Shown here: positions 13,326-38,939 of the stretch, piece after piece
How positions within the stretch are numbered: position 1 is the stretch's first letter
Layout of the letters: the number at the start of each line of letters is the position of its first letter
Assembly (NCBI GenBank): GCA_030429935.1
Contig: JAUIGH010000001.1
Span: 1 to 46,357 of the forward strand
DNA length: 46,357 nt
From: a bacterium
Lineage (GTDB): Bacteria > Patescibacteriota > Saccharimonadia > Saccharimonadales > Saccharimonadaceae
Reading direction: 5' to 3'
Position numbers and translations under genes: made by a program
Notes under the pieces: model-generated
What the model was told of the DNA's origin: nothing
What the model saw: the letters and a program-made list of their open reading frames with translations, nothing else
Database searches by the model: none

Positions 13326-13384
13326 AGATGTACACCAAAGGTGGCCCGAATGGGTCTAGGGTTTTGATATACATCCCGGTTCAG

Positions 13385-13413
13385 AAAAAGTGGCCAAGCA
13401 AGGCCACTTTTTG
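13385..13413. terminator. bidirectional rho-independent terminator
   Basis: AAAAA-GTGGCC-aagcaa-GGCCAC-TTTTT, between tRNA-Gln and the convergent GNAT gene. Confidence 0.6.
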
Positions 13414-13459
13414 GTTTGAAGCTCTTATGATTTGTACGAACAGGCAATCGGACGTATAG

Positions 13460-13979
13460 CTACAGGCTTATTTTAATATTTTTCCATACAAGGCCATTGT
13501 CGTCGATGTACGGCACGCCGTCCTCTTTGAAGCCTAGGGACTTGTTAAGGTTGATGACGGGCGTGTTATTGGCCAAGTGGCGAGAATAGATGGTTTTCAA
13601 CTCGAAGGTGTTCTTTATGTAATTAACAGCTGCTTGCATAGCAGACTTCCCGATACCCTTGCCGCGATAGTCAGGGTTACCGATCATGATATGAATACTT
13701 GGCGGCTGTACATGGTGATTCTCGAATAGCTCAATCCAGACAAGACCGATCGTCTTTTGATCGATAATAATCATGCGAGCCCTCTTGCTCTAGGCTGATA
13801 AACTCACGCATAATAGCCATTTCACCTTCAAGCGTGGATGGCTCAATTTCACTATTGGCGTTACCCATGCTTAAGAGTGTGGCGTGGCCTTCTGGCCTTT
13901 GAAACCAGCTTAGTGCAAAGAGCGCATCTCTATCTGGGTCGGGTGATAACAGTTGAATGCTCGAATCGTTAGATTGCAT
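13460..13979 (-). pseudogene. GNAT N-acetyltransferase split by one frameshift
   Basis: Two overlapping ORFs (13731-13979 and 13460-13774) join into one GNAT-like protein if 1 nt is removed near 13775-13785. The acetyl-CoA motif is IGNPDYRGKGIGKSAM. Confidence 0.55.
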
Positions 13980-13988
13980 AATGACTCC

Positions 13989-15200
13989 TCATTCATTTAG
14001 TGTAGAGTGTATGGCTTCTTCGAGTAGGTTAAGCCCCTCGATTAGCACCTCTTCACTAATAGTTAATGCTGGTATGAATTTAACAACCTCATCTTTTGCT
14101 CCTACTGTTTCAATGACGAGTTTTCTTCGAAACAAAGCTTTGTAATGGTTTTTGCCATCTCCGCTTCCGGAAAACGAGTCCACACGAGAGGCCGCGTCCT
14201 CGGACCGTCGTGAAGGTTTCGAGATAAAGATCTTTTATTCTCTCTAGTCTTTCGCGAACAATTTTCTCTTTTCATTTCACTTCCGCTGAAAGCTCGTCCG
14301 ACCGCCAGAACTTTTCAAGTGCCTTGAGGCCGGCGACAATGCAAGATTATTACCCCGAAATGTGCCGTTAGGCTGCCCTGGCTTCCATATATCTAACTCT
14401 GGTTTAAGGAGTACGAGCGCCATAGGTAGGCCAAAGCCGGAAATTGACTTTGATAAGACGACATCTGGGTGTGTTTCGGCAAACTCAAAGCTAAAGAAAT
14501 CTCCAGTTCGTCCGCACCCTGCCTGGACATCGTCGACAATAAGAAGAATGCCCCTCCTAGCTGTTAAGTCGCGAAGGCGCTTTATCCACTCGGCGCTAGC
14601 GACATTTACACCCCCTTCACCTTGAAAAAGTTCAACAATGACAACTGCTGGCAGATCGACGCCGCTACTTGGGTCATCAAGAACTTTTTCTAAATATGCA
14701 ATATTGTCTAATCCATCAAAGTAGTTGTCATAAGGGGGAAAGACGGTGTCACTTAAAGGGGTACTAGAGGCGTTCCGGAACCATGAGCTGGACGTTGCTG
14801 CGAGCGAGCCTGAAATGAGTGACTAAATGCAATGACATTATGTAGTCCTGTTGCAAGACGAGCGATTTCCAGGGCTGCTTCAACTGCATTAGTGCCAGTG
14901 GGGCCAGTAAATTGAAGTTTATAGTCAAGAACGCGAAGTGTGAGGATGGTTGTCGTAAACTCCTTGATGAACGTAGCCTTAACCCTAGTGGCCATATCAA
15001 GTCCATGGATAATGCCATTACTCTGGAGATACTCGATCAGTGCCCGGACCATCGTTGGTTCGTTGTGTCCGTAATTGAGTGCGCCAGCGCCACGAAGAAA
15101 TCGATATAGCGACGCCGCTCGTCATCCCATATATAGGATCCTTCTGCCTAAAAGAGCGAAACTGAGAAAGAGCGAACACATCTTATTACATTTGATTCGT
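13989..15200 (-). pseudogene. class-III aminotransferase (diaminobutyrate--2-oxoglutarate transaminase-like), multiply frameshifted
   Basis: Minus-strand fragments in different frames: IDFF/GAGALNYGHNEPTMVRALIEYL, LQFTGPTGTNAVEAALEIAR, LLIVDDVQAGCGRTGDFFSFEFAETHPDVVLSKSISGFGLPMA..GQPNGTFRGNN, VKFIPALTISEEVLIEGLNLLEEAI. At least four frameshifts and in-frame stops. Confidence 0.75.
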
Positions 15201-15276
15201 ACTGATCGATTACGTCTGACGCTGTATTCGTGCTGTAATTTTACCAGAAATCAGCTTGTACGGTTATAATGTAGGT

Positions 15277-16707
15277 ATGAACTACGATTATGTCATTGTT
15301 GGTGGCGGTGCAATTGGGCTGGCTATAGCTTATCGACTCAAGAAATCCCACGAAGAGCGATCAGTACTAGTGCTTAATAGTAATGAAACTGGCACGGCAA
15401 GTCTTGCTTCGGGTGCTATGCTTGGCTGTTTTGGTGAAGTTACAAAATACACACTGAAAAACGAAGCTGGCAAAAAGAAATTTGACCTGATGTACGCTGC
15501 TCATAAGCAATGGGCGTCATGGCGCGAGGAAGTCGAAGCTTCAGCGCAACAATCTATCAGGCATACGCCTGGAAGCTATGTAATTCTTAACACCCACGGC
15601 GGATCCCTTGACGATGAAAACTTTGATGCAATGGTGCAAGCTTTGGTTAACTACGAAGAGCCTTATGAGTATGTTGCGCCGAAGGATATCCCGGGCCTCC
15701 ATCCAAATAATCTAGCCCGTCCACTTCGTGCAATTTATCTTCCAAATGAAGGTTCAATTGAAAGTAATCAATATGTTGAAGTGTTGAGAGTTGCCTGCCG
15801 GAATATTGGCATTACTCTCACAGACATTCACTCTCTTGGGGCTATTGAGCGCCGTGGTAATGATTATGTCGTGACTATTGACGATGAAACAAATATAACA
15901 ACGTCATCGGTGATTATTGCTACGGGCGCTTATACGAGCAGTGTCTTAGCAAAGGTGACGCCTACTGTCGGTGCAATGCCGGTGCTTGCTGGTAATGGCG
16001 TAGCTGCAGTAACAAAGCGTCAACTTGGTGAAGGCTTCAAGGCGACAGTGCGTACCGCGAATCGCGCAGGCTCCTGTGGGCTTCACATCGTACCAATGAG
16101 TGATGGGTGTGAATATATCGGTGCTACTAACGTTCTCTACAGCGAGCCCGAGGCGCGTATGACCGTTGGTCTCTCCCACTTCTTGTCCCAGTGTGCAATC
16201 GAGCAGCTTGACCTCAATATATATCACTCCTTCGTACAAACATGGCGCACAGGTAATCGTCCTGTTTCTTTGGACACCTTGCCACTGATTGGAAAAATAG
16301 ACGATCTGGGACTGTATGTTGCAACAGGGACGTATCGCGATGGACTTCACTGCTCACCTGTTATTGCGGATGCGCTAGTGGCCGTGATCGATGAGAGGGA
16401 AGCTCCATTGATCGAAAGCTTTAACCCGCAGCGAACTTTTACAGAGTTGATGTCGAAAGAAGTTTCTATGGACGAGTATGCTATGCAGGCAGTGTCCGGT
16501 GCCTATGAGAACTGGTATCGACCCGCATACTACATGAATGATGATGAAGTCTATAAGAGCGCTCGTCAGAAAGCCGCTGATATATACGACCAACTTCAGA
16601 TAAATGTTGGCCTTCATCCAGATATTCTTCTGCTTCTCTCTTCCGACGACTCAGCTATCGAGCGAGTAAGAGAGTATCTTCTGATTAACGAGGTGCAGGC
16701 GACATGA
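15277..16707 (+). CDS. FAD-dependent oxidoreductase (DAO / glycine-oxidase-like family)
   Basis: N-terminal Rossmann motif DYVIVGGGAIGLAIAYRL. 476 aa from ATG 15277. Confidence 0.75.
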   Translation: MNYDYVIVGGGAIGLAIAYRLKKSHEERSVLVLNSNETGTASLASGAMLGCFGEVTKYTLKNEAGKKKFDLMYAAHKQWASWREEVEASAQQSIRHTPGSYVILNTHGGSLDDENFDAMVQALVNYEEPYEYVAPKDIPGLHPNNLARPLRAIYLPNEGSIESNQYVEVLRVACRNIGITLTDIHSLGAIERRGNDYVVTIDDETNITTSSVIIATGAYTSSVLAKVTPTVGAMPVLAGNGVAAVTKRQLGEGFKATVRTANRAGSCGLHIVPMSDGCEYIGATNVLYSEPEARMTVGLSHFLSQCAIEQLDLNIYHSFVQTWRTGNRPVSLDTLPLIGKIDDLGLYVATGTYRDGLHCSPVIADALVAVIDEREAPLIESFNPQRTFTELMSKEVSMDEYAMQAVSGAYENWYRPAYYMNDDEVYKSARQKAADIYDQLQINVGLHPDILLLLSSDDSAIERVREYLLINEVQAT

Positions 16708-16973
16708 CGTCGGGTCGAGACCTTATTGACGCCGAGGGTCGTGTGACTCGCTGGCCTAAAAAATCCACTGAGCGCGAGCAGGTGCTTGGCTACCTGGCTT
16801 CAAAGTTCCAAAGCGACCGCACATACACAGAAATTGAAGTAAATGATATTTTGCGCCAGTGGCATACATATGAAGATTGGTCGTCTCTAAGACGCGATCT
16901 TATCGGTTACGGCTACGCAACTCGGGATAGAAATGGGCTCAAGTATCAATTTAAAGGACAGGGAGACGAATAG
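16704..16973 (+). CDS. DUF2087-like small protein
   Basis: RVTRWPKKSTEREQVLGYLASKF..YTEIEVNDIL...LRRDLIGYGY matches my memory of the DUF2087 pattern. The start overlaps the upstream stop (ATGA). Confidence 0.6.
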   Translation: MTSGRDLIDAEGRVTRWPKKSTEREQVLGYLASKFQSDRTYTEIEVNDILRQWHTYEDWSSLRRDLIGYGYATRDRNGLKYQFKGQGDE

Positions 16974-17479
16974 TGGAACAGATTCGTGACTACAGGCCGG
17001 ATACGGATGAAGCTGAAGTCTCAACACTCTTGAAAGAGTTTCAAGAACATCTCGCCACTGTCGATCAAGAAGATGAAATCCGAAGCTTTGTTTCTGATGC
17101 GGACGCACGCCGCTACCTAGATAAGATGGTCAATGATAGTACGGAAATGAATGGTAAGTTTTTGGTGCTCGAGCTGGATGGAAAGCTCGTTGGTTTCATT
17201 CAGGGGATCATTGACCCACGCAATGACCAAAGTGATGTCATGTACCAAACTACACACAATGCACAGATTGAGGGTTGGATCGGACTTGTCTATGTACGCC
17301 CCGAATATCGTGGACGTCGGTTTGGTATCAAGCTGATTGAGGCGATTAAGCAGCACTTTATAGCCAATGGCTGTACTACGCTCCGCCTCTTGGTTGCTCG
17401 CGATAATACTAATACGGTCAACTTCTATCACAAATATGGATTTACTGACCGCGACGTAGAAATGGCTATGCCGTTATAG
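16973..17479 (+). CDS. GNAT family N-acetyltransferase
   Basis: VYVRPEYRGRRFGIKLIEAI...NFYHKYGF. The GTG start overlaps the upstream TAG by 1 nt. Confidence 0.8.
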   Translation: MEQIRDYRPDTDEAEVSTLLKEFQEHLATVDQEDEIRSFVSDADARRYLDKMVNDSTEMNGKFLVLELDGKLVGFIQGIIDPRNDQSDVMYQTTHNAQIEGWIGLVYVRPEYRGRRFGIKLIEAIKQHFIANGCTTLRLLVARDNTNTVNFYHKYGFTDRDVEMAMPL

Positions 17480-17482
17480 ATC

Positions 17483-20400
17483 ATGACTAAAGCAGGCCGA
17501 CCACTTTATGCGTTTGTAGATGATTGTGCAGTACAGTGGCCTGAGATGCCTGCGCTTAGGGATGAACAGTATGTATATACCTATGGTGAGCTGAGTAAGC
17601 TTTCAAGTTACTTTGCTCATCGTATTTGTGCGACAGGTGACGTTGCGGGAAAGCACATCGGCCTGCTGTACGATCGCTCGGCCCAAAGTATTATCTTGTT
17701 GTTGGCTATTATGAAAGCCGGGGGTGTGTATGTTCCTCTCAACCGGGCATTGCCAAAAGATCGTCTTATGGAAATGGTGAGTGGAGCGGATATCACCCTT
17801 GTCGTCACTCCGGATGAGCCTTCTATTGCTATGGACCAGCCCACTATTGCTCTTGCGCCGATTGATCCTTTGCATGTCGCTATTCAGCCTCCGCTGCTTG
17901 CTAGTGAGGCACTAGCCTATGCAATTTTCACCTCTGGCTCAACGGGAATGCCGAAGCTTGCTCTGTTGAGGCACGAGGCTGTTGTGCATGTTATGACAGC
18001 GTTAGCTGAACGATATTATATCGCACGCAATGATCGTATGCTACAGTTCGCTAATCTCTCATTTGACGGGTCAATATCAGAAATCTTTGGTGCTTTTATC
18101 GCTGGCGCCGAGCTTATTATTCCGGGTGAGCAAACGACGCAAAGTCTTACGCGGCTGGCTGCCTATTTTGATAGCGAGGCTGTGAGTGTTGCTGTTTTGC
18201 CACCCTCGCTTCTTGCACACCTTCCGCTTAGCTTTCGGTCCTTAAAGACTATCGTTGTTGCGGGCGAAGCGTGCTCCTCTTCTCTTGCAAGAACGGTCAC
18301 AAAGCAAGTGCCGCATTTTATTAATGCATATGGTCCGACGGAATGTTCAATTTGTGTTTCAACCTATGAGGTGCCAAAAGATTTCGACGGAAGCATCATT
18401 CCAATCGGCGAGCCGCTCCCCGGCGTGAATACGGTCATACTGGATGAAAAAGGCCAGCCCGTCGCAAATGGAGTGACCGGTGAGCTGTATGTGGGCGGCC
18501 CTAGTCTATTTGATGGGTACTATAATGACTCGGCAAAAACATCTGCTGCGCTCATTCAGCGCGGGGCTGAGGGCCTATTTTATAAAACAGGTGACTATGT
18601 GACTCTTGAGGGTAAAATCCTTACGTACGTATCTCGATCCGATGATTATATAAAACTCCACGGCCTTCGTATCTCTCCCCTTGAGATTGAGGAAGCGATT
18701 CGGCACTCGGACGATTCTATTCGTGGTGCAGCTGTGGTATTGGTTGAGGATGGAGACGACAATAGTCTTGCTGCTTTCTATGAGAGCGCGCACGAGCTAC
18801 CTGTTGATGATATTCTTCAGTCGATAAAGCGCCAATTGCCGGCATATGCGGTGCCGCATAAGATTGTGCATCTTGCACACCTTCCGCTGACTGACAACAA
18901 AAAGATTAACCGTCGTGCACTTGCTGCACAGGTGCGGCCAAGTCTCGAACCGGCGCCAGCTTCGGATTCCTCTCTACGCGCGCTTTGGCAAACTACTCTA
19001 CGGGTGTCCATTGACGATGCAACTGATTTCTTCTTGGCGGGTGGCGACTCGCTGAAGGCGATGCGGTTAATTGCTGAAGTTGATCGGCAGTATGGAACAA
19101 GCTTAAACCTTGTGGATCTCTATAACCACTCCACCTTTGGTGATTTTTCTGCTCACATTGAAGCCTCTTCACCTTCGGCGTCTTTACGATCATACAACCC
19201 ACAGGACCTAACTCCATACGAGGTAATGATGTGGAGCGCGTCTGCACACTCGGGTAACGCAGGGGCGTACACGCTTGTGGAGGTTGTAGAGCCATATTTT
19301 GATGTAGACCCTATGCGACTTAAGCAAGCTATTGCGGCACTGTCTGATAACTTTTCTGCTGCATCGTATCGCTACATCCTTGGTGAGAATGGGCTTGAGA
19401 AACAACTGGCTTCAGGAATTAGTTTTGTTAATCATGGCGATCTCACTAGGGCGGAAGGTGACGCACTCGCCACTTCTCTTGCAAACGCTGGCATAGACCT
19501 TGCTGCCGATGCGCTCATTACAGTTCATTTTGCGCTTATTGACGCGTCCCCTACTATTATCATTCATGCTCATCATATTGTACTTAGTGCAAGTATTCTG
19601 AAGCTCTTTGTGGATGAGCTCTGGCAACGCTATGCTGGCTTGGCCGTAGTGCAGAGGGTCGAGGAAGCGCCTCGAGAATTCACCGAAGACGATTTAGCGT
19701 TTTGGAAAAAAGCTTACGACTCCACCGCTGATTATGTGCAATTGCCATGGAGCGGTATTCGGCAGCCAAAACCAAAGAACGACGGAGCTACCTTTGTAAC
19801 GACAATCGATGTATCTATGAATCGGCTAGTGTCAGAGCTTGGTATTACAAAATTTGTCTTTTACCGAAGTGTCTTCGCTCTTCTCCTCCATAGGCTTACT
19901 GGCCAACCTTCTTTTTACATTGGTAGCTCAGTTGATGTGCGTCATGGTGACTTCTTAGGGGCTCAGCCGGCAATGCTTAATTCACTACCTATTCTCTCTG
20001 TTCTTGAAAGTGAGCAGACGTTTAAGAGTTTTATCCTCGAGACACAGCAGGCTGTGCGGGCCGCCCTTAGTCATTGCCATGTACCCCTTCATGACATTAT
20101 GAAGCTTCACATATTTGAGCAAGATCGTCTCGTCGGTCCTTTTAACGTCTTGTTTGATTACGTCGAGAAGCCTAACTCTTACGAAATGCCCGGGCTTGGC
20201 ACTATTGATAGCAAGCAGTGGTTTAATTCCAGCGCTAAGCACGACCTGACTCTTACAGTTGTTGAATCGTCGGGCACTGAGTTGCAGTGGGAGTACGATA
20301 CTGACCTTCTGGATGAACGAACTGTGCAGCAATTTGCAACTATCTTCACCCACCTCTGTCATACGGTTCTGCACGACTTGCACGCTCCGATCGCTTCCCT

Positions 20401-23400
20401 CCCGCTTCTTGACGAGGGTGAGCGAGTGGCTATGCTAAGCATTGGCAGGGGTGAGACTCGAGCCCGCTCGGCAAGCTCATTCTACGAGCGGTTCTCTGAT
20501 ATGGTGAGGCGGCAACCCGATGCAATTGCTGTGCGACACCAGGGGCACAGCACAACGTATCAAGATCTGCACTACCTCGTGGAGCACTTCTCGGCAATTC
20601 TTGTGGAACAGGAACTGTCCTCAGACGCTCCTGTGGGAGTTTTTATGGAGAGGTCTCCGGAAATGGTCGCCATCATTGTTGCGCTTTGGAGGCTGGGCTA
20701 TGCGTATGTGCCTATCGAAACAACCCTCCCATTGCAACGTATCCGCTCAATTATTGAAACAACTCGAATGTCGCTTATGGTGACGAAAGTTACGCACCGG
20801 GCAAAGCTTCCTGTTGATAATATGCGGATTATCGATGAAACACATCAGCCGAAGACGATCTATACTCCCGAGACTACAGTATCGCCAAATACGCTTGCGT
20901 ATGTCATCTTTACTTCGGGATCCACGGGAACGCCTAAGGGCGTCATGATTGAGCACGCGGGTATGATGAACCACGCTGAAGGTATGATCGAATATCTCGC
21001 GCTTGATAATGCGTCGACGATTGCGCAGACTGCCTCGCATTCATTTGATATTTCTGTGTGGCAATTAACTACAATACTTATTGCTGGTGGAACGATTGCA
21101 ATCTATTCGAAAGACGAGCAAAGCAATCTCGATAGTTTTACGACGCGGCTTTTTGAGGACCGGGTCACTTTGTTGGAGCTCGTGCCATCATACATCAATA
21201 TCCTCCTCGAATATCTTGAGGATACGCACAATCAGCAGAAGCTAAAGAACATTGACGCCCTCATCTCGACGGGTGAGAACATCTCGTGGCCTATTGTCGA
21301 GGGTTGGCTGCAAAACATGCCAGGGAGTCGTTTAATGAATGCCTACGGACCGGCCGAGGCATCTGATGACACTAACTTGTTTACATTTAAAGATCTATCG
21401 GCAATGCAGCGACGAGGTCTTCCGGTTGGTGCTTCCCTTGCTAATGTTAATGCTTACGTTCTAGATGAAGCGCTAAATCCTCAACCAATTGGTGTGCAGG
21501 GTGAAATCTATATTGCAGGCATTGCAGTGGGCCGAGGATATATTAATGATCCTGAGCGAACTCGCAAGAGCTTTATTAGCAATCCTCACACGGGTGAGCG
21601 TATGTATAAAACGGGCGACCTTGGCTATTGGTCCTCGGAGGGTCAACTTGTGTATTTAGGGCGCTCTGACTTTCAGGTCAAAATTCGAGGCTTCCGGATC
21701 GAACTCGAAGAAATTGAGGCCCACATCATTCGCTACCCTCATATTACGTCAGTAGCGGTAATGGTGGTTGACCGGAATAATTCCAAGCAGCTCCACGCTT
21801 ATGTCACTGCTGATATAGATATTGATAGTAGTGTGGTGCTAAGTCATCTTCGCGACCATCTCCCTGACTATATGGTTCCTTCGAGTATTGTTCAGTTATC
21901 GGCTCTGCCGTTAAACAATAGTGGAAAGATTGATCGTCATTTTCTTGCCAACAAAGAGCGTCTGCGTTTCAAGGAAGTTGAGGAAATTGCTGGGCCGAGC
22001 GTTGAAGAAGCAGCAGTAATGGCGGTATGGCGCGAAGTCTTTGGGTTGGATTATATGACGGTTGACGATGACTACTATGCGCTTGGCGGAGACTCGATTA
22101 CGTCTTTTCGCGTCTATGCCAAGCTCAGCGCAAAGGGCTACCAGCTTACTCTTCAGGACATCCTTGCCTTCCCTATCCTGAAAGACTTCGCGAGAACCAT
22201 GACATCTGAGTCAGTTGACGTGCGGCAGGTACCTCGGATCGACAAGGCATTATTGCCGACACCGATTCAATCCCGACTCCTGGCTGCCGGGTCTAAAGAA
22301 GTAATGGCGCAGAATATTAGTCTCAAAGGTCACTGGGAGCGTGAGCGACTTAATACTGCTATCCAGGCGTCGGCACGGAACCAAGGTGTCTTTTATCTGA
22401 TGTTCGACGCAGATGGACAGCGCTTTGGCCTGGAGCCCCAATTCAAAGAGGCATATGCATTCGTTGAGTCATCTGTTGCTGAGGATGATGCTTTTGACAG
22501 GCTGAACAGGGAGCTGACGCGGAGTGTGGTTTTTGCTTATGGTGCCGAGGGTGACGACACTACAGTAAGGGCGCTTTACCTGTCGGCGAATCATTTGGTA
22601 ATGGATGTAGTGTCATGGAATATCTTTATTGCCGCGGTGAACGATGCGTATGAGGCGACGTCACGTGTCGATAATGATATCGATTACACATTTGGCTCAT
22701 GGGCACAGGCCATGCAAGATGCTGATGACCCTTCGTCTGAAATATTAGACTATTGGCGGGGTGTTCTTTTGCAAACGGTTGATGCGACGCGTGCATTAAA
22801 GCAACTTTTTGTTTACGACATTCCTGATCGGCAACTCTTTACGATGGACGCACCCCTTCCTCTGGTACAATTTACAGACGCGTCGGTTTATCTAGCCGTA
22901 TTACAAGCGCTTGCGCAAGTCCTTGATATTGCTCAGTCGGGGATATTAATAGAAACTCATGGACGGTACGGGGAGGTGTTAGGCATTGACCTCTCAAAGA
23001 CGGTGGGGTGGTTTACTCACCTCTTACCCCTGACTGGGGCGACTAGCCGTGATATTGAATCTATTCTTCGTGTAGACAATATGACTAAAGTGGCTTATGG
23101 CTTGGCAACTCAACGAGATTTACTGAATCGCGAACTAGAGCCACTAGTGGTTGTAAACTATCTTGGCAAATCTTCTAATATGAGTGGCTATGCTATGCGC
23201 CATAGTGCCCAGGAGAGGCCGATCGGCAAAGAATTACTGGAGCTGTCTATCTATGAAGACGGCTCGAATTTGTGCATTAAAGTCGTGCTCTATGCGACAC
23301 CGAAGGAGGATGAATTTGTACAGAAACTCCTTACTGCTATTACCCGGCAGCTCTCTGCGGGTGAGGCTAATTTAGAAAAAAGTCGTCTTGATGCTATTTT

Positions 23401-23428
23401 GAAAAGAATCGGAGCAAACTGTGGATAG
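17483..23428 (+). CDS. non-ribosomal peptide synthetase, two modules: A-T-C-A-T-E
   Basis: A1 motifs: AYAIFTSGSTGMPK, FDGSISE, NAYGPTE, GELYVGG, YKTGD, SRSDDYIKLHGLRISPLEIE. T1 is GGDSL (Ser523, nt 19049-19051). C-like motif HHIVLSA (aa 697-703). A2 motifs: LAYVIFTSGSTGTPKG, FDISVWQ, NAYGPAEASDD, GEIYIAG, YKTGD, GRSDFQVKIRGFRIELEEIE, NSGKIDR. T2 is GGDSI (Ser1538). The E-like domain has LPTPIQ and NHLVMDVVSW. Confidence 0.9.
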   Translation: MTKAGRPLYAFVDDCAVQWPEMPALRDEQYVYTYGELSKLSSYFAHRICATGDVAGKHIGLLYDRSAQSIILLLAIMKAGGVYVPLNRALPKDRLMEMVSGADITLVVTPDEPSIAMDQPTIALAPIDPLHVAIQPPLLASEALAYAIFTSGSTGMPKLALLRHEAVVHVMTALAERYYIARNDRMLQFANLSFDGSISEIFGAFIAGAELIIPGEQTTQSLTRLAAYFDSEAVSVAVLPPSLLAHLPLSFRSLKTIVVAGEACSSSLARTVTKQVPHFINAYGPTECSICVSTYEVPKDFDGSIIPIGEPLPGVNTVILDEKGQPVANGVTGELYVGGPSLFDGYYNDSAKTSAALIQRGAEGLFYKTGDYVTLEGKILTYVSRSDDYIKLHGLRISPLEIEEAIRHSDDSIRGAAVVLVEDGDDNSLAAFYESAHELPVDDILQSIKRQLPAYAVPHKIVHLAHLPLTDNKKINRRALAAQVRPSLEPAPASDSSLRALWQTTLRVSIDDATDFFLAGGDSLKAMRLIAEVDRQYGTSLNLVDLYNHSTFGDFSAHIEASSPSASLRSYNPQDLTPYEVMMWSASAHSGNAGAYTLVEVVEPYFDVDPMRLKQAIAALSDNFSAASYRYILGENGLEKQLASGISFVNHGDLTRAEGDALATSLANAGIDLAADALITVHFALIDASPTIIIHAHHIVLSASILKLFVDELWQRYAGLAVVQRVEEAPREFTEDDLAFWKKAYDSTADYVQLPWSGIRQPKPKNDGATFVTTIDVSMNRLVSELGITKFVFYRSVFALLLHRLTGQPSFYIGSSVDVRHGDFLGAQPAMLNSLPILSVLESEQTFKSFILETQQAVRAALSHCHVPLHDIMKLHIFEQDRLVGPFNVLFDYVEKPNSYEMPGLGTIDSKQWFNSSAKHDLTLTVVESSGTELQWEYDTDLLDERTVQQFATIFTHLCHTVLHDLHAPIASLPLLDEGERVAMLSIGRGETRARSASSFYERFSDMVRRQPDAIAVRHQGHSTTYQDLHYLVEHFSAILVEQELSSDAPVGVFMERSPEMVAIIVALWRLGYAYVPIETTLPLQRIRSIIETTRMSLMVTKVTHRAKLPVDNMRIIDETHQPKTIYTPETTVSPNTLAYVIFTSGSTGTPKGVMIEHAGMMNHAEGMIEYLALDNASTIAQTASHSFDISVWQLTTILIAGGTIAIYSKDEQSNLDSFTTRLFEDRVTLLELVPSYINILLEYLEDTHNQQKLKNIDALISTGENISWPIVEGWLQNMPGSRLMNAYGPAEASDDTNLFTFKDLSAMQRRGLPVGASLANVNAYVLDEALNPQPIGVQGEIYIAGIAVGRGYINDPERTRKSFISNPHTGERMYKTGDLGYWSSEGQLVYLGRSDFQVKIRGFRIELEEIEAHIIRYPHITSVAVMVVDRNNSKQLHAYVTADIDIDSSVVLSHLRDHLPDYMVPSSIVQLSALPLNNSGKIDRHFLANKERLRFKEVEEIAGPSVEEAAVMAVWREVFGLDYMTVDDDYYALGGDSITSFRVYAKLSAKGYQLTLQDILAFPILKDFARTMTSESVDVRQVPRIDKALLPTPIQSRLLAAGSKEVMAQNISLKGHWERERLNTAIQASARNQGVFYLMFDADGQRFGLEPQFKEAYAFVESSVAEDDAFDRLNRELTRSVVFAYGAEGDDTTVRALYLSANHLVMDVVSWNIFIAAVNDAYEATSRVDNDIDYTFGSWAQAMQDADDPSSEILDYWRGVLLQTVDATRALKQLFVYDIPDRQLFTMDAPLPLVQFTDASVYLAVLQALAQVLDIAQSGILIETHGRYGEVLGIDLSKTVGWFTHLLPLTGATSRDIESILRVDNMTKVAYGLATQRDLLNRELEPLVVVNYLGKSSNMSGYAMRHSAQERPIGKELLELSIYEDGSNLCIKVVLYATPKEDEFVQKLLTAITRQLSAGEANLEKSRLDAILKRIGANCG

Positions 23429-26270
23429 TCCAATTACTGACATTGTGCCTGCAACTCCCGTACAGCATGGGTTGCTCTATGTTGAGCGTTCGTATGCAAA
23501 AGGCTCGCTCTATCATGAGCAGTACATTGCTAAGTTGGCGGGCCCCCTGGACCTGGGCCGTCTAGAAATTGCATGGCAAAAAACCGTTGCTGCACACACT
23601 ATTTTGCGAACTATTTTTGACTGGGATGGACAAAATGAACCGATGCAAATTGTACTGCGGCATTATGCTGCGCCGTTTGTTGTTATGGCTGATCCGCTGG
23701 AGGAGAATGAACGTACGGCATTTGTAGAGCGGGACGCTCAGGATTCATTTCAATTTGATACAACTCCACCCCATCGACTCACTCTCATGAAGCTCGATGA
23801 TCAGACGCACTGGCTAGTTTTTACCTACCACCATCTATTACTAGATGGCTCCTCAGTCTCGGCGTTATTTGATTACTTGGCATGGCAGTATAATCAGCCG
23901 TCCGAAGTGCGAGAAATTAATGACTACGGCGCATACTCTCGTTGGATACAGAGTTATAGGCAACAGGAAAATTCTGTTGATGCGTGGCATAGCTATGCCG
24001 AGGGTATTAGTCTCCCAGCTTCGCTGGTGCAAGAATATAGCAATGATCAGACTCGCGAGCATTATCAGTATATTGATCGCGAGGCGGTAGATCGGCTGGT
24101 CGCTGCGGCTCGTGCGCATCACCTCACGCTTAACAGTATTTGTCAGGTTATGTGGGCATATACATTTGCGCTGAGTCGTGAGCAGCCACAGGTGTGCGCT
24201 GGTTCACCGACAATGGTCAAGCCACTTGATAGCAGCCTGGATTCTGTAGTGGGTCTTTGTATTAATACATTGCCTTATATACTCTCGTTCGATCGCGAGC
24301 AATCTCTGGTTGATATTGCTGTGCGGCATCAACAGAACTGGGGAGGGCTTATCGAGCACTCTCGAATCGGGCTCGCTGAGATCAAGAAAGCTATTGGATA
24401 TCATCACTATGGCGATCCGTTCGACACCATACTAACGTACACGGACGCTCGTGACAGAATACTCCCTAGGCTTGATGGTGTAGATTGGCGGGTCCTGTCG
24501 CATAATGAAGTAACTCAATATCCCCTATCGCTGGACGTTGTTTATGATGTTCATTCAATTGAATTAAAAGCAACCTACAGAGATGCTCACTATAATGCAC
24601 CGACCATTTCACGTCTTGTGCAGTCTTTTGCTGATAATCTTAGCCTTTTCATTGAACACCCCGATACCATTCCTCACCTTCGGTCTTATACTGATGTAGA
24701 TGACGAGACTGTTGCCCCTCAGGGAAGCGGGCGTGAGGCACTGACCGAGAAAATTGCACAGATATGGACGGATGTATTCGGCGTTGAAGTTGGATATGAT
24801 TCAAACTTTTTCGACCTTGGTGGTGACTCAATTAGCTCTCTTCGTATTGTCAGTAAACTCCTTGAGGCGGGCGTTACGGCTTCGATGCGCGATGTCTTCG
24901 ATTCACCGACCCCGGAGCTGCTTGCTCGAGTGGTGTTATCGACCGCAATAGATGACCCTGTTACGCACATGGATCTGCCTGCAAGCGTTGAGGAGAAGGC
25001 TCGTCAGTTATACGGAAGCAATATTAGTGCAGTTGTCCGCGCTTCGAGTGTCCAGCAAGGCATTATCCGTCGTCCATCATCCAAGCAGAATTTATATCAT
25101 GACCAATCAACGTTTACCTACAAAGGCCGCTTGGACCCTGAACTATTTGAAAAAGCGTGGAACATTGCTGCACATAAAAATGACGCGATGCGCATGCGAT
25201 ATTTTTCGAAGGACGATGTGTGGTATGTGTGTGCGTTAAAAGACAGCGCCATATCTATGCGGTATTTCGACCTCAGGGATACACCACGACAGAGCGAGGC
25301 TATACAGCGCGCTATTGAAGACGACTTGGCGACGCCTTTTAATCTTCAGCGCGACCCACTTATTAGACTAAGGCTATATCGAACTGGCGATGAGACACAC
25401 GTTCTCTTTTTGAGTTTCCATATTCTTGTTACCGACGGTTGGAGCTTTGCTTTCATGATGGACGATGTTTTCACTGCCTACGAACACCTTATTGAGGAGC
25501 GATCGTTCGATCTTCCTAGTCGCCGCCTGACATATGTTGACTATCTCCACTCGCTTACGGTGAGCGATACTATTTCCGGTCGCCAGCATTGGTCTCAATA
25601 TCTCCATGATGCTGCGGGAGCTAAGGGTGTGTCGATCTCAAATTTTTCAAACCTTGACGTGGTTTTTGCTCATCTTGACGGAGACGAGACGGATGTAATT
25701 CAGCGGTTTGCAAGTGCAAAGAAGCTATCACTCAACTCGGTCGTGCAGGCTGCTTGGGCAACAATTAACGCACGACAATCGGAACCGGTTATATTTGGTG
25801 CAACAACGTCCGCTCGTTTGCTTCATGGTGTCAATTACGACGATACTGTTGGTCTTTTCTTTAATGACATCCCTATTATTGCTCATGTCGAGGGTCGGAG
25901 TATTGAGCAGCTGGCAAATATAATTCAGCGTGATTTTCAGACGAACCTAAAGTATAGCTACGTATCTTCTTATGATATTGCGGAGATGGTGGGTCGGGAT
26001 CCCGAAGAAGCGCCATATGATAGTCTTATTGTTTTCGAAAACTACCCTAAGATGCAGGAAGATAGCCTGAAAGAATCCCGCCGTGGTGGAGTGATGAATA
26101 CGGACTATTGGCGACGGGACATGGCCGACATTCCAATGACGTTGTATGTAGAGGTGCGCAATGGCGTGACAGACATTAAACTTTCTTATAACAATACCGT
26201 CGTTTCTCGTGATGTTGCTCAGGGGCTTGTCGATGAGTTTATGCGGACGTTAAAGGTATGTACATTGTAG
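23421..26270 (+). CDS. NRPS protein with C-T-C architecture (no adenylation domain)
   Basis: The GTG start overlaps the upstream stop. C2 has PATPVQHGLLY and a canonical HHLLLDG (aa 137-143). T3 is LGGDSIS (Ser470). C3 has SFHILVTDGWS (aa 665-675). Confidence 0.85.
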   Translation: MDSPITDIVPATPVQHGLLYVERSYAKGSLYHEQYIAKLAGPLDLGRLEIAWQKTVAAHTILRTIFDWDGQNEPMQIVLRHYAAPFVVMADPLEENERTAFVERDAQDSFQFDTTPPHRLTLMKLDDQTHWLVFTYHHLLLDGSSVSALFDYLAWQYNQPSEVREINDYGAYSRWIQSYRQQENSVDAWHSYAEGISLPASLVQEYSNDQTREHYQYIDREAVDRLVAAARAHHLTLNSICQVMWAYTFALSREQPQVCAGSPTMVKPLDSSLDSVVGLCINTLPYILSFDREQSLVDIAVRHQQNWGGLIEHSRIGLAEIKKAIGYHHYGDPFDTILTYTDARDRILPRLDGVDWRVLSHNEVTQYPLSLDVVYDVHSIELKATYRDAHYNAPTISRLVQSFADNLSLFIEHPDTIPHLRSYTDVDDETVAPQGSGREALTEKIAQIWTDVFGVEVGYDSNFFDLGGDSISSLRIVSKLLEAGVTASMRDVFDSPTPELLARVVLSTAIDDPVTHMDLPASVEEKARQLYGSNISAVVRASSVQQGIIRRPSSKQNLYHDQSTFTYKGRLDPELFEKAWNIAAHKNDAMRMRYFSKDDVWYVCALKDSAISMRYFDLRDTPRQSEAIQRAIEDDLATPFNLQRDPLIRLRLYRTGDETHVLFLSFHILVTDGWSFAFMMDDVFTAYEHLIEERSFDLPSRRLTYVDYLHSLTVSDTISGRQHWSQYLHDAAGAKGVSISNFSNLDVVFAHLDGDETDVIQRFASAKKLSLNSVVQAAWATINARQSEPVIFGATTSARLLHGVNYDDTVGLFFNDIPIIAHVEGRSIEQLANIIQRDFQTNLKYSYVSSYDIAEMVGRDPEEAPYDSLIVFENYPKMQEDSLKESRRGGVMNTDYWRRDMADIPMTLYVEVRNGVTDIKLSYNNTVVSRDVAQGLVDEFMRTLKVCTL

Positions 26271-26968
26271 CGCTTCTTGATATTAGGCTAGTAAATGATG
26301 GGATTAAGACAAAGGCCGTGTCCCTCTTGTCGCCTGAGGAAATGGAGCGTTATGGGAGATTCCGTCATGCGTCCGATGCTAATCTATTTCTTTTTGGTCG
26401 GTTTCTTGCGCGCTGTCTTGTTTCCCGTGTCGCCACGAGGCGACCTGAAGATGTTGCAATCCTGGTTGCCGGTACCGCAACTAAGCCCTATGAGTCGCAG
26501 CGGCTGATAGAGTTTAGCATTTCACACAGTGGAACCTTTGTGGCAGTTGCTGTCTCTCAGCGACCGGTTGGTATCGACGCACAGGTGCACGACCAGACAC
26601 GGACTGATGTGTTTGATAGATTCTTTACTGCTGAAGAAAAAGGCTACGCCCACCAGTCGTTGAAGAATTTTTATAGATTATGGACGTCTGTGGAGTCGCT
26701 AGCAAAGATTACAGAGCTCGGCTTCAATGAAGCGCTCATGAATCGTACCCCCCGGTTCAAGAGTGATTTGAGTGGCTACACTTTCAATCAGACAAGCTAT
26801 TACATAAGTACGCTCGTTCAAACAGAGGATCTGACATTATCTGTCGTTACAGCTGAAGACGTGCTCTTTCGGAAGTACCCGTCAGCGAGAGAGGGACTCC
26901 TTGCTGGGATCGATACTGATGAGCTTTCACTTGAAGTTTACTCTGGGAGTGTAGACTCTGACGTGTAG
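26258..26968 (+). CDS. 4'-phosphopantetheinyl transferase, Sfp type
   Basis: FSISHSGTFVAVAV...VGIDAQ and WTSVESLAKITELG resemble the Sfp-family core motifs. The start overlaps the upstream gene by 13 nt. Confidence 0.75.
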   Translation: MYIVALLDIRLVNDGIKTKAVSLLSPEEMERYGRFRHASDANLFLFGRFLARCLVSRVATRRPEDVAILVAGTATKPYESQRLIEFSISHSGTFVAVAVSQRPVGIDAQVHDQTRTDVFDRFFTAEEKGYAHQSLKNFYRLWTSVESLAKITELGFNEALMNRTPRFKSDLSGYTFNQTSYYISTLVQTEDLTLSVVTAEDVLFRKYPSAREGLLAGIDTDELSLEVYSGSVDSDV

Positions 26969-27975
26969 ACTTCGGCGTCACGTATATTGGCGCCGGTTTC
27001 AAATCCTCTTACAAATGAGGCGAATGCACCTGGTGTGACATCGTGGTTGTATCCACCGCCCATAATAACGAGAGTGCGCATGTTCATGTGACCAAGGCGG
27101 TCTCCAATTTCGGCATATTCCTGATCATCCAAATGGGTTAGTGGTGGCAGGCCTGGCCACTCGCGAGTATGGCCGTCAAACCCTGCTTCGATAATAAGGT
27201 AGTCGGCACCAAATGACTTAATCTTTTCTTGGGCACGTGCTAATAATTCGAAGTATTCCTCGTTTGAGATGCCAATAGGAAATGGAAGATTAAGGATGGT
27301 CCCCTCTCCTTCGCCAATGCCAGTCTCGTCTGCATGGCCAGTGTGTGGGAAGATCTCATTGGGATCGGCATGAAGGGATACGTAAAGGACCTCTGATTCA
27401 TCTTGAAAGATGTCCTGGATGCCATCACCGTGATGAACATCAAAATCCAGGATTGCAACTCGTTTGCCTGCTTCTTTGAATGCCTCGGCGGCAACGGCGG
27501 CATTATTGAAGAAACAAAAGCCATGATAGAACTCTCGCCCTGCGTGATGTCCGGGTGGTCGAGAGACGGCAATTGTAAGGCGCTTCTCTTCATCGTTCAG
27601 CAGTGCGTCGGCCGCAGCTAGAGATGCTTCGGCCGAAAAGAGGGCTTGCTCAAATGTGCCTGGATAAATTGCCGAAGCATTTGTCTCAGTGTCGCGGTCA
27701 TACGGCGACTTTAATGGGTTGTTATCTGTTGCTTGTAGACCAGTCTCATATATGGCTTGTATCATTACGGGTGAATGAAGTTTTGAGACAATGGCATAAG
27801 TTTCCTTGTGGACTTCAGGGACTACTACCCACTCTGTAGGAATGGTGTCGGAGAGGAGTTCATTTATGATGCCGTAAAGCCGCTCTGGAACATCCCATGG
27901 CTGTCCCTCGTCATCAATCCATCCCTTATGCTTGTAATGCTCGGAGTTATGGTACACGTGTCGTTCGGCTGGCAT
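26938..27975 (-). CDS. histone-deacetylase-family amidohydrolase (AcuC / acetylpolyamine amidohydrolase-like)
   Basis: RPPGHHAGREFYHGFCFFNNAAV, DFDVHHGDGIQDIF, SLHADP..FPHTGH. Start chosen at ATG 27975. The 3' end overlaps the PPTase 3' end by 31 nt. Confidence 0.8.
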   Translation of the reverse strand: MPAERHVYHNSEHYKHKGWIDDEGQPWDVPERLYGIINELLSDTIPTEWVVVPEVHKETYAIVSKLHSPVMIQAIYETGLQATDNNPLKSPYDRDTETNASAIYPGTFEQALFSAEASLAAADALLNDEEKRLTIAVSRPPGHHAGREFYHGFCFFNNAAVAAEAFKEAGKRVAILDFDVHHGDGIQDIFQDESEVLYVSLHADPNEIFPHTGHADETGIGEGEGTILNLPFPIGISNEEYFELLARAQEKIKSFGADYLIIEAGFDGHTREWPGLPPLTHLDDQEYAEIGDRLGHMNMRTLVIMGGGYNHDVTPGAFASFVRGFETGANIRDAEVYTSESTLPE

Positions 27976-28080
27976 AGTAGATTTTACTTTACAGTAATAA
28001 TGTAAACGTATCAATACAGCCACAATTTACACCAAAAGTGAACCAAATGGGTCAAAAGGGTTCATGTAAATCATGGATAG

Positions 28081-28108
28081 AAAAACGACCGATTTCGGTC
28101 GTTTTTTT
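28081..28108. terminator. bidirectional rho-independent terminator
   Basis: AAAAA-CGACC-gatttc-GGTCG-TTTTTTT, downstream of the recombinase-like gene. Confidence 0.55.
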
Positions 28109-28162
28109 GTTTCGATTCTCGCAAGCCGCTCACCCCAATAAGGAAGTGAGTCTAGGACTTTA

Positions 28163-29140
28163 TTAAACTCGTATCGATTCTCGATTATGGAGTGCAAGCT
28201 TTAAGTTAAGATTTCGTATGAGTTGTGTTTCCTCGAAGAGCGTTCCGTCCTGAACGACGTATTTTATGTAGGCACCAATTGCATCCTCTTCTCTATAAGA
28301 ATCACTTGTCGCTCTGATGATCTTTGTGAACTTGTCTATGGCAATACGTAGGTCTGGCTCAAGGGCCTCAATGTCTGTGATGAGATTATTGCAATGCTTG
28401 ATAAGCCCGTTTACAATATCTCGCTCGCGTCCAAACGGTTCTTTGCAGTCATAGTCAACCTGTCTTGAGCAATGATAGTACATAAAGACACCTACTGTGC
28501 CATTCTTGTACTTTTTCTTGCGTTCTTCGCAGACGATCGTTGAGCCGCAGCTGTAGCAGGTCATGAAGCGCTTATACGGAAATTCTTTTGCACCCCATTT
28601 GGATTTCATAGGCACTTTTAGTTGTTCTTGAACTATGTCAAACAAGTCCTTTGTAATTAGTGGCTCGTGACTGCCTTCGTACCATTGGCCACTGTCTTTG
28701 GGAAATTCAAATTTACCGTAGTAGTATGGATTTTTTAGTATTTTGTAAATCATACTCAGTGAGATGTGTTTTTCTTTTCGTGTCGTTACTGTATTATCTT
28801 CGAGCCATGACCGAATATGTCTTCCGCTCTTGCCGTTGGCTGACATTTCGAACATCTGCCTGATATATGGCGCTCGCAGCTCGTCAATAATGACATCTCG
28901 ACCATTACCACTTCCTCGCGTGAAGTAGCCGAGCGGTAGTATGCATAGCCGCCACCCCATTTCGCATTTGGCTCGGATGCCACGCTTTACGTTGATCGCC
29001 CGGTTATCGTTTTCAAGCTTTTCAATGTAGTCGTTAACCGCATGGGCTGGCTGTGATTTAACATGTTTATCTTTTTCCTGCAGGTTTTTACGCAAAGACC
29101 TAAGACTATCAATATAAGATGATAGCTGGTTCTTGCTCAT
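28163..29140 (-). CDS. large-serine-recombinase C-terminal portion (recombinase domain + zinc ribbon); catalytic N-terminal domain absent
   Basis: LPLGYF...IDELRAPYIRQMFEM..GKSGRHIRSWLEDN...IYKILKNPYYYGKF and CYSCGS...YYHCSRQ fit the recombinase and zinc-ribbon domains. No YxRVSxxxQ-type serine catalytic domain is found in the ORF or in the 260 nt upstream. Confidence 0.65.
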   Translation of the reverse strand: MSKNQLSSYIDSLRSLRKNLQEKDKHVKSQPAHAVNDYIEKLENDNRAINVKRGIRAKCEMGWRLCILPLGYFTRGSGNGRDVIIDELRAPYIRQMFEMSANGKSGRHIRSWLEDNTVTTRKEKHISLSMIYKILKNPYYYGKFEFPKDSGQWYEGSHEPLITKDLFDIVQEQLKVPMKSKWGAKEFPYKRFMTCYSCGSTIVCEERKKKYKNGTVGVFMYYHCSRQVDYDCKEPFGRERDIVNGLIKHCNNLITDIEALEPDLRIAIDKFTKIIRATSDSYREEDAIGAYIKYVVQDGTLFEETQLIRNLNLKLALHNRESIRV

Positions 29141-29380
29141 CGCAGTAAACTCTTCTAGTGGAGTAACATCAATGGCTAATTCTCTTTGCAGTCATGTCAC
29201 TTCAACGCGGACACTTTGTGCTATTTCTTTGAGCTTATCTTCCTTTTGCCACGGTAATTCAGGGAGGTTATAGTCTGCCATGTACCGTAGGTATTCCGAC
29301 CTATTGTCAAATGATTTTGGTTTATAGAATTCTTTGAGGTAAATATTAAGGGTGATCAAGGTACAATAAAAATGTCCTTA

Positions 29381-29410
29381 TAAAGAGAAGAGGCGCACCG
29401 AAGTGCGCCA
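29381..29410 (-). terminator. rho-independent terminator of the high-GC gene
   Basis: The minus strand reads GGCGCAC-ttcg-GTGCGCC followed by TCTTCTCTTT, 24 nt after the stop. Confidence 0.5.
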
Positions 29411-29433
29411 ATTCCCGAACTGCTGCTGTGGAT

Positions 29434-29856: not shown

Positions 29857-29979
29857 CGCGGGTACTTCCTTTCAGTCGGGAACAATTATACTATATCATA
29901 TACATCAAATATAATCAATAGCATAGAGTCTACATCTCGTGTCTCATTTCAGGTATCAGATCCGTATGCTTAGCCATGG

Positions 29980-38935: not shown

Positions 38936-38939
38936 AAAA

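Follow-up and report, generated by a model that had tools for sequence, protein, structure and literature searches.

A nonribosomal peptide synthetase cassette maintained on a tRNA-Gln island in a Candidatus Saccharibacteria genome

Introduction

Why would a bacterium with a reduced genome keep a peptide assembly line, and what might that line make? The question is raised by a nonribosomal peptide synthetase (NRPS) locus in a 46,357-nucleotide stretch of DNA from the family Saccharimonadaceae (GenBank assembly GCA_030429935.1, contig JAUIGH010000001.1, positions 1 to 46,357 of the forward strand), the whole of which we call the window. Bacteria of the candidate phyla radiation (CPR, or Patescibacteria) are seen as symbionts of minimal metabolism that make hardly any secondary metabolites. 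In surveys of CPR/Patescibacteria, few or no biosynthetic gene clusters (BGCs) and no NRPS have been reported (PMC7298704, PMC11613949, PMC8694215). Sharrar et al. described three BGCs in CPR metagenome-assembled genomes (MAGs), none of them an NRPS, and termed BGCs rare there; a long-read study of deadwood found no BGCs in Patescibacteria, and two cultured Saccharibacteria likewise have none. Our own literature search for NRPS or antiSMASH in combination with Saccharibacteria, Patescibacteria or CPR found no description of an NRPS, although its coverage was incomplete and this is absence of evidence. Here we analyse the locus and consider it probable that it is a genuine NRPS cassette, kept by selection on a 16.8-kb, now immobile tRNA-Gln island in a Candidatus Saccharibacteria chromosome, and that it works by the mechanism proposed below.

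Results

The locus encodes a predicted two-protein assembly line

The first-pass annotation of the window had described six translationally coupled genes on the plus strand, facing a convergent HDAC-family gene, and our open reading frame (ORF) map reproduced all of its genes, coordinates and junctions. The junction GACATGACG gives an ATGA overlap at 16704-16707, AATAGTGG gives a TAG/GTG overlap at 16971-16975, and TAG-ATC-ATG leaves a 3-nt gap ahead of the NRPS1 start at 17483. Within the end of NRPS1, eight nt ahead of its stop, lies the GTG start of NRPS2 (23421), and within the end of NRPS2, thirteen nt ahead of its stop, the ATG (26258) of a 4'-phosphopantetheinyl transferase (PPTase) gene, which in turn overlaps the minus-strand HDAC gene tail to tail by 31 nt. 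Every domain family named in that annotation was matched by Pfam above its gathering cut-off: DAO (134 bits), DUF2087 (78), GNAT (68), AMP-binding twice, PP-binding three times, Condensation four times, AASDHPPT_N with ACPS, and Hist_deacetyl (216).

Pfam searches, run also piecewise, and motif reading predict the domain order A1-T1-C1-A2-T2-E for NRPS1 (17483-23428, plus strand, 1981 aa) and C3-T3-C4 for NRPS2 (23421-26270, plus strand, 949 aa), where A, T, C and E are adenylation, carrier, condensation and epimerization domains. On NRPS1, A1 (nt 17522-18922) is followed by T1 (nt 18974-19159; GGDS, Ser523 at 19049-19051), C1 (nt 19229-20434; HHIVLSA), A2 (nt 20501-21928), T2 (nt ~22013-22207; GGDSI type, Ser1538 at 22094-22096) and E (nt 22208-23425; the last 406 aa). 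NRPS2 carries C3 (nt 23439-24668; HHLLLDG), T3 (nt 24747-24932; Ser470 at 24828-24830), which has no cognate A domain, and C4 (nt 25038-26255; FHILVTDGW). The adenylation core motifs and three GGDS carrier serines that had been called readable are indeed present: the AMP-binding domains score 228 and 234 bits and both contain SGSTGxPK, NAYGPxE and YKTGD, and the carrier serines (S523, S1538, S470) are invariant across the seven family members compared. A2 has canonical A8 and A10 motifs, which diverge in A1 (SRSDDYIKLHG, NKKINR). Among the condensation domains, C3 has a canonical HHLLLDG, C4 retains the second His in FHILVTDG and C1 has HHIVLSA without the Asp, and all three states are conserved across the family.

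The sizes of both synthetases and the C-T-C layout of NRPS2 agree with the first-pass annotation, but NRPS1 ends in an E domain and not in a C domain. Epimerization domains carry characteristic signature motifs, against which the terminal 'condensation' domain of the 1981-aa NRPS1 reads TPIQ, NHLVMDVVSW, ETHGR, TVGWFT and NYLG (the family member L008 has HH for NH). Because of these signatures, the GGDSI-type T2 upstream and the fact that its sole Protein Data Bank (PDB) matches are TycA E domains (E = 7e-5), we assign this domain, as judged from its sequence, to epimerization. The closest structures to C3 include the C domains of McyB-N, TycB, SrfA-C and BacC, the first three of which lie downstream of E domains, and C4 resembles the same set. 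Pfam detected no thioesterase (TE) or reductase (R) domain in NRPS1 or NRPS2, and C4 is terminal in every family member.

The locus is part of a nine-gene cassette with two pseudogenes

Comparison with related contigs, labelled L001-L018, showed that the conserved unit is a cassette of nine genes that starts ~1.8 kb to the left of the locus first described. Across eight genomic contexts the order is a GNAT (Acetyltransf_3) and an aminotransferase (Aminotran_3) gene on the minus strand, then DAO, DUF2087, GNAT, NRPS1, NRPS2 and PPTase on the plus strand, then HDAC on the minus strand. These genes recur in L001-L008 and L013-L016, with flanks that differ on both sides. The 33%-identical L008 has a rearranged version with DUF2087, HDAC, NRPS1, NRPS2, PPTase, Aminotran_3 and Acetyltransf_3, and these seven genes therefore represent the deep core of the cassette. 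L001 is collinear with the window at 96.3% identity over 13451-28019.

In the window, the two leftmost genes are dead. The upstream GNAT (Acetyltransf_3; 176 aa when intact) is a pseudogene at 13460-13979 (minus strand) with an 11-nt deletion relative to the intact L001 copy. The neighbouring pseudogene (13989-15231, minus strand) derives from an EctB-type diaminobutyrate-2-oxoglutarate transaminase of 420 aa and has suffered deletions of 1, 1, 1, 3, 13 and 1 nt, that is, five frameshifting deletions and one in-frame deletion of 3 nt; in both pseudogenes the deletions fall outside homopolymers. The intact L001 aminotransferase is an EctB equivalog (640 bits on TIGR02407, cut-off 552), and such a gene is found in six of the eight cassette contexts, including the deepest-branching L008. 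The Candidatus Microsaccharimonas copy, L002, has no ectB and retains the rest. The earlier claim of a self-contained NRPS locus with its own PPTase thus holds for the NRPS and the Sfp-type PPTase, but not for the ectB-type gene for 2,4-diaminobutyrate (Dab) and the second GNAT gene. We considered the upstream GNAT as an EctA orthologue and rejected this, as there was no EctA match and the best match was SpeG (30 bits). In the 84%-identical version of the cassette, a PrnB-like gene (PF08933) directly follows the deacetylase gene (L005:14602-15651, L006:10932-11981) and may be an extra tailoring gene of that lineage.

Upstream of the first operon gene, the best promoter-like site of the region, TTACCA-18-TATAAT (15241-15270, plus strand), ends 6 nt 5' of that gene and is weak evidence, as a promoter and terminator scan gave site counts no higher than chance. 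As a sigma-70-like promoter 6 nt from the first ATG, it would mean a nearly leaderless transcript. A 1-nt insertion relative to L001 falls in its spacer (18 nt versus 17).

Tailoring genes and binding pockets suggest a modified cationic peptide

The PPTase (26258-26968, plus strand) is of the Sfp type, with AASDHPPT_N and ACPS domains and the motifs GID105-107 and WTSVESLAK; its best NCBIfam match, AusB, is far under the cut-off (50 versus 225 bits). Saccharibacteria are not known to synthesise fatty acids and would thus have no housekeeping PPTase, in which case the assembly line would need one of its own.

The first gene of the operon (15277-16707, plus strand; ORF from 15256) had been called an FAD oxidoreductase. 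The FAD/DAO family assignment stands, and the match can be refined to a homologue of Orf1, an N-formimidoyl synthase in a glycine-oxidase-like family: over residues 4-424 the protein scores 228 bits to Orf1-type structures (PDB 7xqa/8gri) versus 61 bits to glycine oxidase. Orf1 oxidises glycine and passes the glycine-derived formimidoyl group to a primary amine via an N-O-S adduct at Cys281 (PMC10156733). This catalytic Cys281 acts with T298, F316 and E426, while R342 and R368 form the glycine site (PMC10156733). All six residues are present, with C281, T298, F316, R342, R368 and E426 corresponding to C267, T284, F302, R328, R354 and E411 of the window protein, and are conserved in 56-60 of 60 homologues, the Cys within the motif CGLH[IL]VP. 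The acceptor-binding E312 and E313 of Orf1 are replaced by G and L, which points to a different acceptor.

At the other end of the operon, the putative Zn-dependent deacetylase (26938-27975, minus strand; ORF to 28023, start probably at 27975) had been described as an HDAC-family amidohydrolase. Its Hist_deacetyl match supports this, and the enzyme is more precisely of the acetylpolyamine-amidohydrolase (APAH) type: APAH structures (150-160 bits) are its closest single-domain structures, and PPGHHA, DFDVHHGDG, GFDGH and GGGY are intact. The GNAT N-acetyltransferase (Acetyltransf_1; 16973-17479, plus strand) and the pseudogenised GNAT both have weak, generic best matches, among spermidine/spermine acetyltransferases. 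Between the FAD enzyme and the intact GNAT lies an 89-aa DUF2087 protein (16704-16973, plus strand), which is fused to the following GNAT in the L003/L004 lineage. It probably adopts a winged-helix fold: an AlphaFold2 model (pLDDT 68) has the topology H-E-H-H-E-E, and the top Foldseek matches were all winged-helix domains, none of them significant.

Pocket residues of the A domains were read by hand from alignments to LgrA with GrsA-numbered anchors. Across the family, the A1 pocket reads DGS[VI]VAAICK (DGSVVAAICK in the window) and the A2 pocket DIWL[IL]TADDK (DIWLITADDK in the window), with two basal Asp residues (positions 330/331) that are invariant even in L008. The A1 code is presumably identical at 6 of 10 positions to the GrsA-Phe code, which we take to be DAWTIAAICK, and at 7 of 10 to a Tyr code. 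For A2, we take 8 of 10 positions to be shared with the PvdL Dab code. From these codes we infer that A1 loads a hydrophobic or aromatic alpha-amino acid; A2 would load a basic amino acid, most likely Dab, an assignment made mainly because of the acidic A2 pocket together with the EctB gene in the cassette. The PDB match of A2 to PvdL was considered as support for Dab and rejected, as the deposited fragment (1653 aa, A domain 1030-1541, N-terminal) is probably not the Dab module.

Put together, these predictions suggest the following pathway. The cluster's Sfp-type PPTase would prime the three carrier domains, A1 would load the hydrophobic or aromatic residue and A2 Dab, and C1 would form the dipeptide. 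The E domain would then epimerise the Dab position to D-Dab, and C3, a putative D-donor-type C domain, would hand the chain to the A-less T3, which may either be aminoacylated in trans by A1 or A2 or serve as a way-station. As there is no TE or R domain, C4 would release the chain as an amide, formed either with an amine that acts as nucleophile or through attack by a Dab amine within the chain. The Orf1-type FAD enzyme could furnish a free primary amine with an N-formimidoyl (amidine) group derived from glycine, while addition of N-acetyl by the GNAT and its removal by the APAH-type deacetylase might provide self-protection and activation. In this genome, Dab would have to come from elsewhere, for example from another pathway or from the bacterial host. 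We predict that the line makes a short cationic peptide, with D-Dab after a hydrophobic or aromatic residue and with amines that would be formimidoylated and acetylated/deacetylated.

The same enzymes could also serve a different chemistry. In this alternative, the NRPS works but makes a peptide-polyamine conjugate or other amine-capped peptide, the terminal C domain adds a polyamine tail on which the GNATs and the APAH-type enzyme act, and A2 takes another basic amino acid. The structural kinship of the deacetylase to acetylpolyamine amidohydrolases, the spermidine/spermine acetyltransferases among the weak best matches of both GNATs, the terminal C domain without TE or R, and the dispensability of ectB in two lineages all fit such a product. 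It is harder to reconcile with the two Asp residues in the A2 pocket and with an EctB equivalog in most contexts down to the deepest branch, and the cassette contains no polyamine-synthesis gene. We regard it as the strongest competitor of the D-Dab peptide, yet an unlikely one.

The seven remaining genes are under purifying selection

The seven intact genes are maintained by purifying selection in spite of the loss of ectB, as judged from lengths that equal those in L001, dN/dS values of 0.09-0.33 each, no indels and intact catalytic motifs in the deacetylase, the PPTase, both A domains and the three carriers. With L005 as outgroup, the window branch carries 112 synonymous and 57 nonsynonymous changes and does not differ from the L001 branch, which carries 89 and 29 (Fisher p = 0.12). 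The 12.7 kb of intact genes contain no indel, whereas ~50 would be expected from the rate in the 1.78-kb pseudogene stretch, which has 7 (P ~2e-22).

These numbers bear on a further alternative, in which the cassette was acquired, is now being lost from a shrinking genome as a decaying relic, and makes no product. Such decay would account for two of nine cassette genes being pseudogenised by seven indels, for the truncated integrase and the apparent further genome reduction, with the pyrimidine operon of relatives absent (both described below), and for the non-canonical catalytic motifs in C1 and E. However, the odd C1 and E motifs are kept family-wide and so do not reflect decay; the 12.7 kb contains no frameshift or stop; the ratio of synonymous to nonsynonymous changes on the window branch is far from the neutral ~1:3; dN/dS is low in every gene; the motifs of C3 and of the Orf1-type enzyme are intact along with those of A1, A2, T1-T3, the PPTase and the deacetylase; and L002, likewise without ectB, retains everything else. 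A relic is therefore improbable.

The cassette sits on a genomic island at the 3' end of tRNA-Gln

An acquired island with edges near 13.3 and 30.2 kb had been suggested from the sequence, and a tRNA-Gln gene, a direct repeat and a drop in GC from 0.54 to 0.48 bear this out. The NRPS locus sits on a 16.8-kb island (~13326-30148) integrated at the 3' end of tRNA-Gln (UUG; 13251-13325, plus strand; found by ARAGORN, Rfam tRNA 63.6 bits). The last 22 nt of the tRNA gene (13304-13325) form the left copy of the attachment-site repeat. The right copy, TCGAATCCCTCCACCCC (30149-30170, plus strand), matches at 21 of 22 positions with one indel, 17 nt being exact, and is the sole further near-match to the tRNA-Gln 3' end within the window. 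GC content drops from 0.546 to 0.478 exactly at tRNA-Gln and is back at 0.537 past 30170 (flanks overall 0.541).

At the left end of the island (13326-13459), L013 and L014, which are independent of each other, have exactly the same junction CCCAGCCA/AGATGTACACC as the window. In L013, 8 nt of the tRNA end are left at the junction and the tRNA itself is absent. L014 begins with the 3' half of a tRNA-Gln at the contig end, 94% identical to that of the window, followed by a hairpin, a segment 70% identical to window 30010-30170, the repeat and the island left end. In the window, the hairpin (29972-30021) and this conserved junction segment (30022-30148, here called X; homologue L014:44-204) lie at the right border: X, of ~130 nt, thus follows the island in the window, whereas in L014 it separates tRNA-Gln from the island. 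No Rfam family matched X, with matches at chance level only. It may be the right arm of the island or a scar left when an element inserted there before; in both cases, elements of this family attach at the 3' end of tRNA-Gln. X also holds an inverted T-arm-like stretch (30031-30050), 19 of 20 positions of which are complementary to the tRNA.

The only recombinase on the island is the remnant of a large serine recombinase (28163-29140, minus strand), which has the Pfam Recombinase domain only, without the N-terminal catalytic (resolvase) domain, and aligns to residues 134-333 of CcrB (of 542) and 225-447 of phrog_95, PHROG integrase family 95 (of 651). No resolvase domain was found in ORFs of the adjacent 29.1-29.9 kb by Pfam, NCBIfam or PHROG matches, and in L014 the recombinase is a 34-residue remnant. 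With its sole recombinase devoid of a catalytic domain, the island is predicted to be immobilised, or fixed, by now. Between the remnant and the right junction, an ORF of 181 aa (29428-29973, plus strand) has no match in Pfam, PHROGs or PADLOC; PADLOC gave no defence-system match for the recombinase, this ORF, DUF2087 or the HDAC protein either.

The host is a reduced Saccharibacteria lineage and the cassette is rare

The host chromosome belongs to Candidatus Saccharibacteria (TM7, CPR) and is a reduced genome, as the first-pass annotation had proposed for the backbone. The cysteinyl-tRNA synthetase (CysRS) of the window resembles many proteins at 65-75% identity, and every named one among them comes from Candidatus Saccharibacteria or Saccharimonadales (69% to RAAC3_TM7_1, 68% to a Saccharimonadales protein, 75% for the best match). 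The contigs with the closest CysRS, L017 and L018 (GC 0.535-0.548, compared with 0.54 in the window flanks), share with the window the gene order DnaB, PMT_2, YbaB, RecR, NrnA, CysRS and AI-2E. These homology and synteny tests covered the right flank; the left flank was compared by GC (0.546 versus 0.537 on the right). The flanks encode ATP synthase epsilon, a Na+/H+ antiporter, Dus, a UvrD/PcrA-like helicase, CysRS, NrnA, RecR, DnaB and DnaX, as well as glycosyltransferases and transporters, and their NCBIfam scores far under the equivalog cut-offs point to a divergent lineage.

Between recR and nrnA, L017 (2830-9418) and L018 (394-9418) have five pyrimidine-biosynthesis genes (DHOase, DHO dehydrogenase, OMP decarboxylase, PRTase and ATCase), where the window (37955-40021) has a Nudix gene alone; as this operon is absent, the genome of the window is more reduced than those of its relatives. 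In L017 (12801-15300), aspartate kinase and aspartate-semialdehyde dehydrogenase genes, a route to the EctB substrate, adjoin the AI-2E gene; neither was seen in the window. Near the left end of the window (703-1584, plus strand), a 293-aa protein has a weak Pfam match to the cadmium carbonic anhydrase (CDCA) repeat (34.8 bits, cut-off 29.2), which is unexpected for the Saccharibacteria lineage.

Among 5.8 billion proteins, the C-T-C protein NRPS2 has 11 full-length relatives, with 97-30% identity, beyond which come generic NRPS fragments with 27% identity over half the length. The named members of the cassette family are Candidatus Microsaccharimonas, Candidatus Saccharibacteria (twice) and one 'Dongiaceae' MAG. 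At least 2 of 185,579 species-representative genomes were matched, a lower bound from a scan with two exact peptide patterns. In JGI metagenomes, the matches listed were generic NRPS at up to 32% identity with no close relative among them, IMG/VR gave no match to the cassette, and the contig index held no record of the exact C-T-C protein of the window. The first-pass annotation could match the locus to no known cluster, and no near-identical characterised cluster turned up in the protein, species-genome or JGI searches. Two long contigs, one of 160 kb from a Saccharibacteria MAG and one of 54 kb from Microsaccharimonas, enclose the cassette. Proteins encoded beside the 96% copy have counterparts with at least 90% identity in dozens of Saccharibacteria contigs (clusters of 51-95 members), and the NRPS of this copy occurs on a single contig. 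At every other locus the GC of the cassette equals that of its flanks (0.44-0.50), and its composition is foreign in the window alone. Taken together, the cassette looks like a rare accessory unit that Saccharibacteria exchange with one another and that this higher-GC lineage acquired recently. A donor from another phylum was not evident, the next-best C-T-C matches having 27-33% identity; the next relatives of the Orf1-type enzyme (53-41%) include a protein of Levybacteria (CPR) and actinomycetes.

One member carries an alphaproteobacterial label. L009 and L015 correspond to DATMTU010000124.1 of a 'Dongiaceae' soil MAG (proteins HWT39845, HWT39848 and HWT40005), and at least three contigs of this bin, with a GC of 0.48, are contiguous with the cassette in other assemblies. 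The Logan contig equivalent to the 'Dongiaceae' cassette contig, L014, abuts the tRNA-Gln fragment described above, and the label is probably a binning error, from a contaminated or mislabelled bin. That the window itself is an artefact, in which the island of another organism such as that of the 'Dongiaceae' bin was misjoined to Saccharibacteria flanks at 13.3 or 30.2 kb, is barely credible: the sharp GC step at both edges and an 84%-identical relative in a 'Dongiaceae' MAG with at least three contigs of that organism in its bin would suit it, but both edges coincide with the tRNA-Gln 3'-end repeat, the signature of site-specific integration, the left junction recurs in the independent assemblies L013 and L014, the cassette lies within two long contigs assigned to Saccharibacteria and Microsaccharimonas, the flanks of the 96% copy match many Saccharibacteria genomes, one on a 1.26-Mb contig, and the 'Dongiaceae' contigs share the GC of 0.48 and, in L014, the tRNA-Gln.

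Discussion

Our analysis describes an NRPS cassette that was integrated at tRNA-Gln in a Saccharibacteria chromosome, lost two genes and has kept seven, and that is predicted to make a D-Dab-containing peptide. Several observations weigh against parts of this account. The substrate calls come from ten-residue pocket codes that were read by hand and compared with published codes. The Dab-supply gene is dead in the window and absent in L002 with an unchanged A2 pocket, so that Dab would either be scavenged or the true substrate differs. C1 has no Asp in its HHxxxDG motif, NH stands in place of HH in the E domain, and L004 (the same as L003 and L010) has FNILVTDGW in C4, where the catalytic His of FHILVTDGW is missing; some domains may thus work unconventionally or not at all. 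No free-standing A domain occurs in any cassette context to load T3. As for the island, tRNA genes are the usual targets of tyrosine integrases, not usually of serine recombinases; the serine recombinase remnant may not be the inserting enzyme, and the original enzyme may be gone. Nor was an empty tRNA-Gln attachment site found via the two CysRS-anchored relatives, L017 and L018, in which synteny stops at AI-2E.

An NRPS of this kind costs ~13 kb, more than 1% of a ~1-Mb genome. Its own PPTase, the selection on its genes and its movement between lineages imply a small molecule with real fitness value. The cassette is a concrete, clonable candidate for the chemistry of epibiont-host interactions, and it places an Orf1-type formimidoyl synthase, characterised earlier only in aminoglycoside and streptothricin pathways, in a peptide pathway. 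More tentatively, and with doubt about the scheme as a whole, one may imagine that this lineage-specific, horizontally exchanged Saccharibacteria cassette makes an N-formimidoylated (amidine) D-Dab peptide that acts as an effector on host bacteria, in killing, attachment or nutrient release, and that some lineages, this one included, take Dab from the host. If true, metabolite production would depend directly on symbiosis.

Parts of the system have known counterparts. Like other tRNA-integrated islands, this one is inserted at a tRNA 3' end that recurs as a direct repeat at the opposite edge, differs in GC from its surroundings, includes a recombinase gene and seems to be accessory among relatives; unlike them, its sole recombinase is a large serine recombinase without catalytic domain, and neither an empty site nor an excised form was observed. 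The FAD enzyme matches, at the sequence level, Orf1 of the streptothricin-type BD-12 pathway and N-formimidoyl fortimicin A synthase in all six catalytic-site residues, but differs in the acceptor residues and in standing beside an NRPS, not in an aminoglycoside or streptothricin pathway. The cassette shares with PvdL/PvdH of the pyoverdine chromophore an E domain, a diaminobutyrate-2-oxoglutarate transaminase gene in the cluster and, by prediction, an aromatic residue joined to Dab; here, there is no acyl-starter or Glu module and no chromophore-maturation gene, and the E domain comes after the Dab module instead of the aromatic one.

AusA/AusB (aureusimine/phevalin) is likewise a compact line with two A domains (A-T-C-A-T-...) beside a dedicated PPTase. 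AusA ends in a reductase domain, whereas our cassette combines an E domain with a separate C-T-C protein and five accessory genes and has neither R nor TE. A carrier module without its own A domain is also found in the viomycin and capreomycin synthetases (VioA A-T-C-A-T-C, with the A-less VioI T-C), where the A-less module is loaded in trans and the pathway uses non-proteinogenic diamino acids. CmnI and CmnG were among the weaker PDB matches of the NRPS domains; there is no close sequence kinship, and here the C-T-C is a separate protein with other accessory genes. An NRPS cluster on a tRNA island is thus of a known kind, and what sets this one apart is its host, its upkeep in a minimal genome, the loss of its precursor gene and the combination of an NRPS with an Orf1-type formimidoyl synthase.

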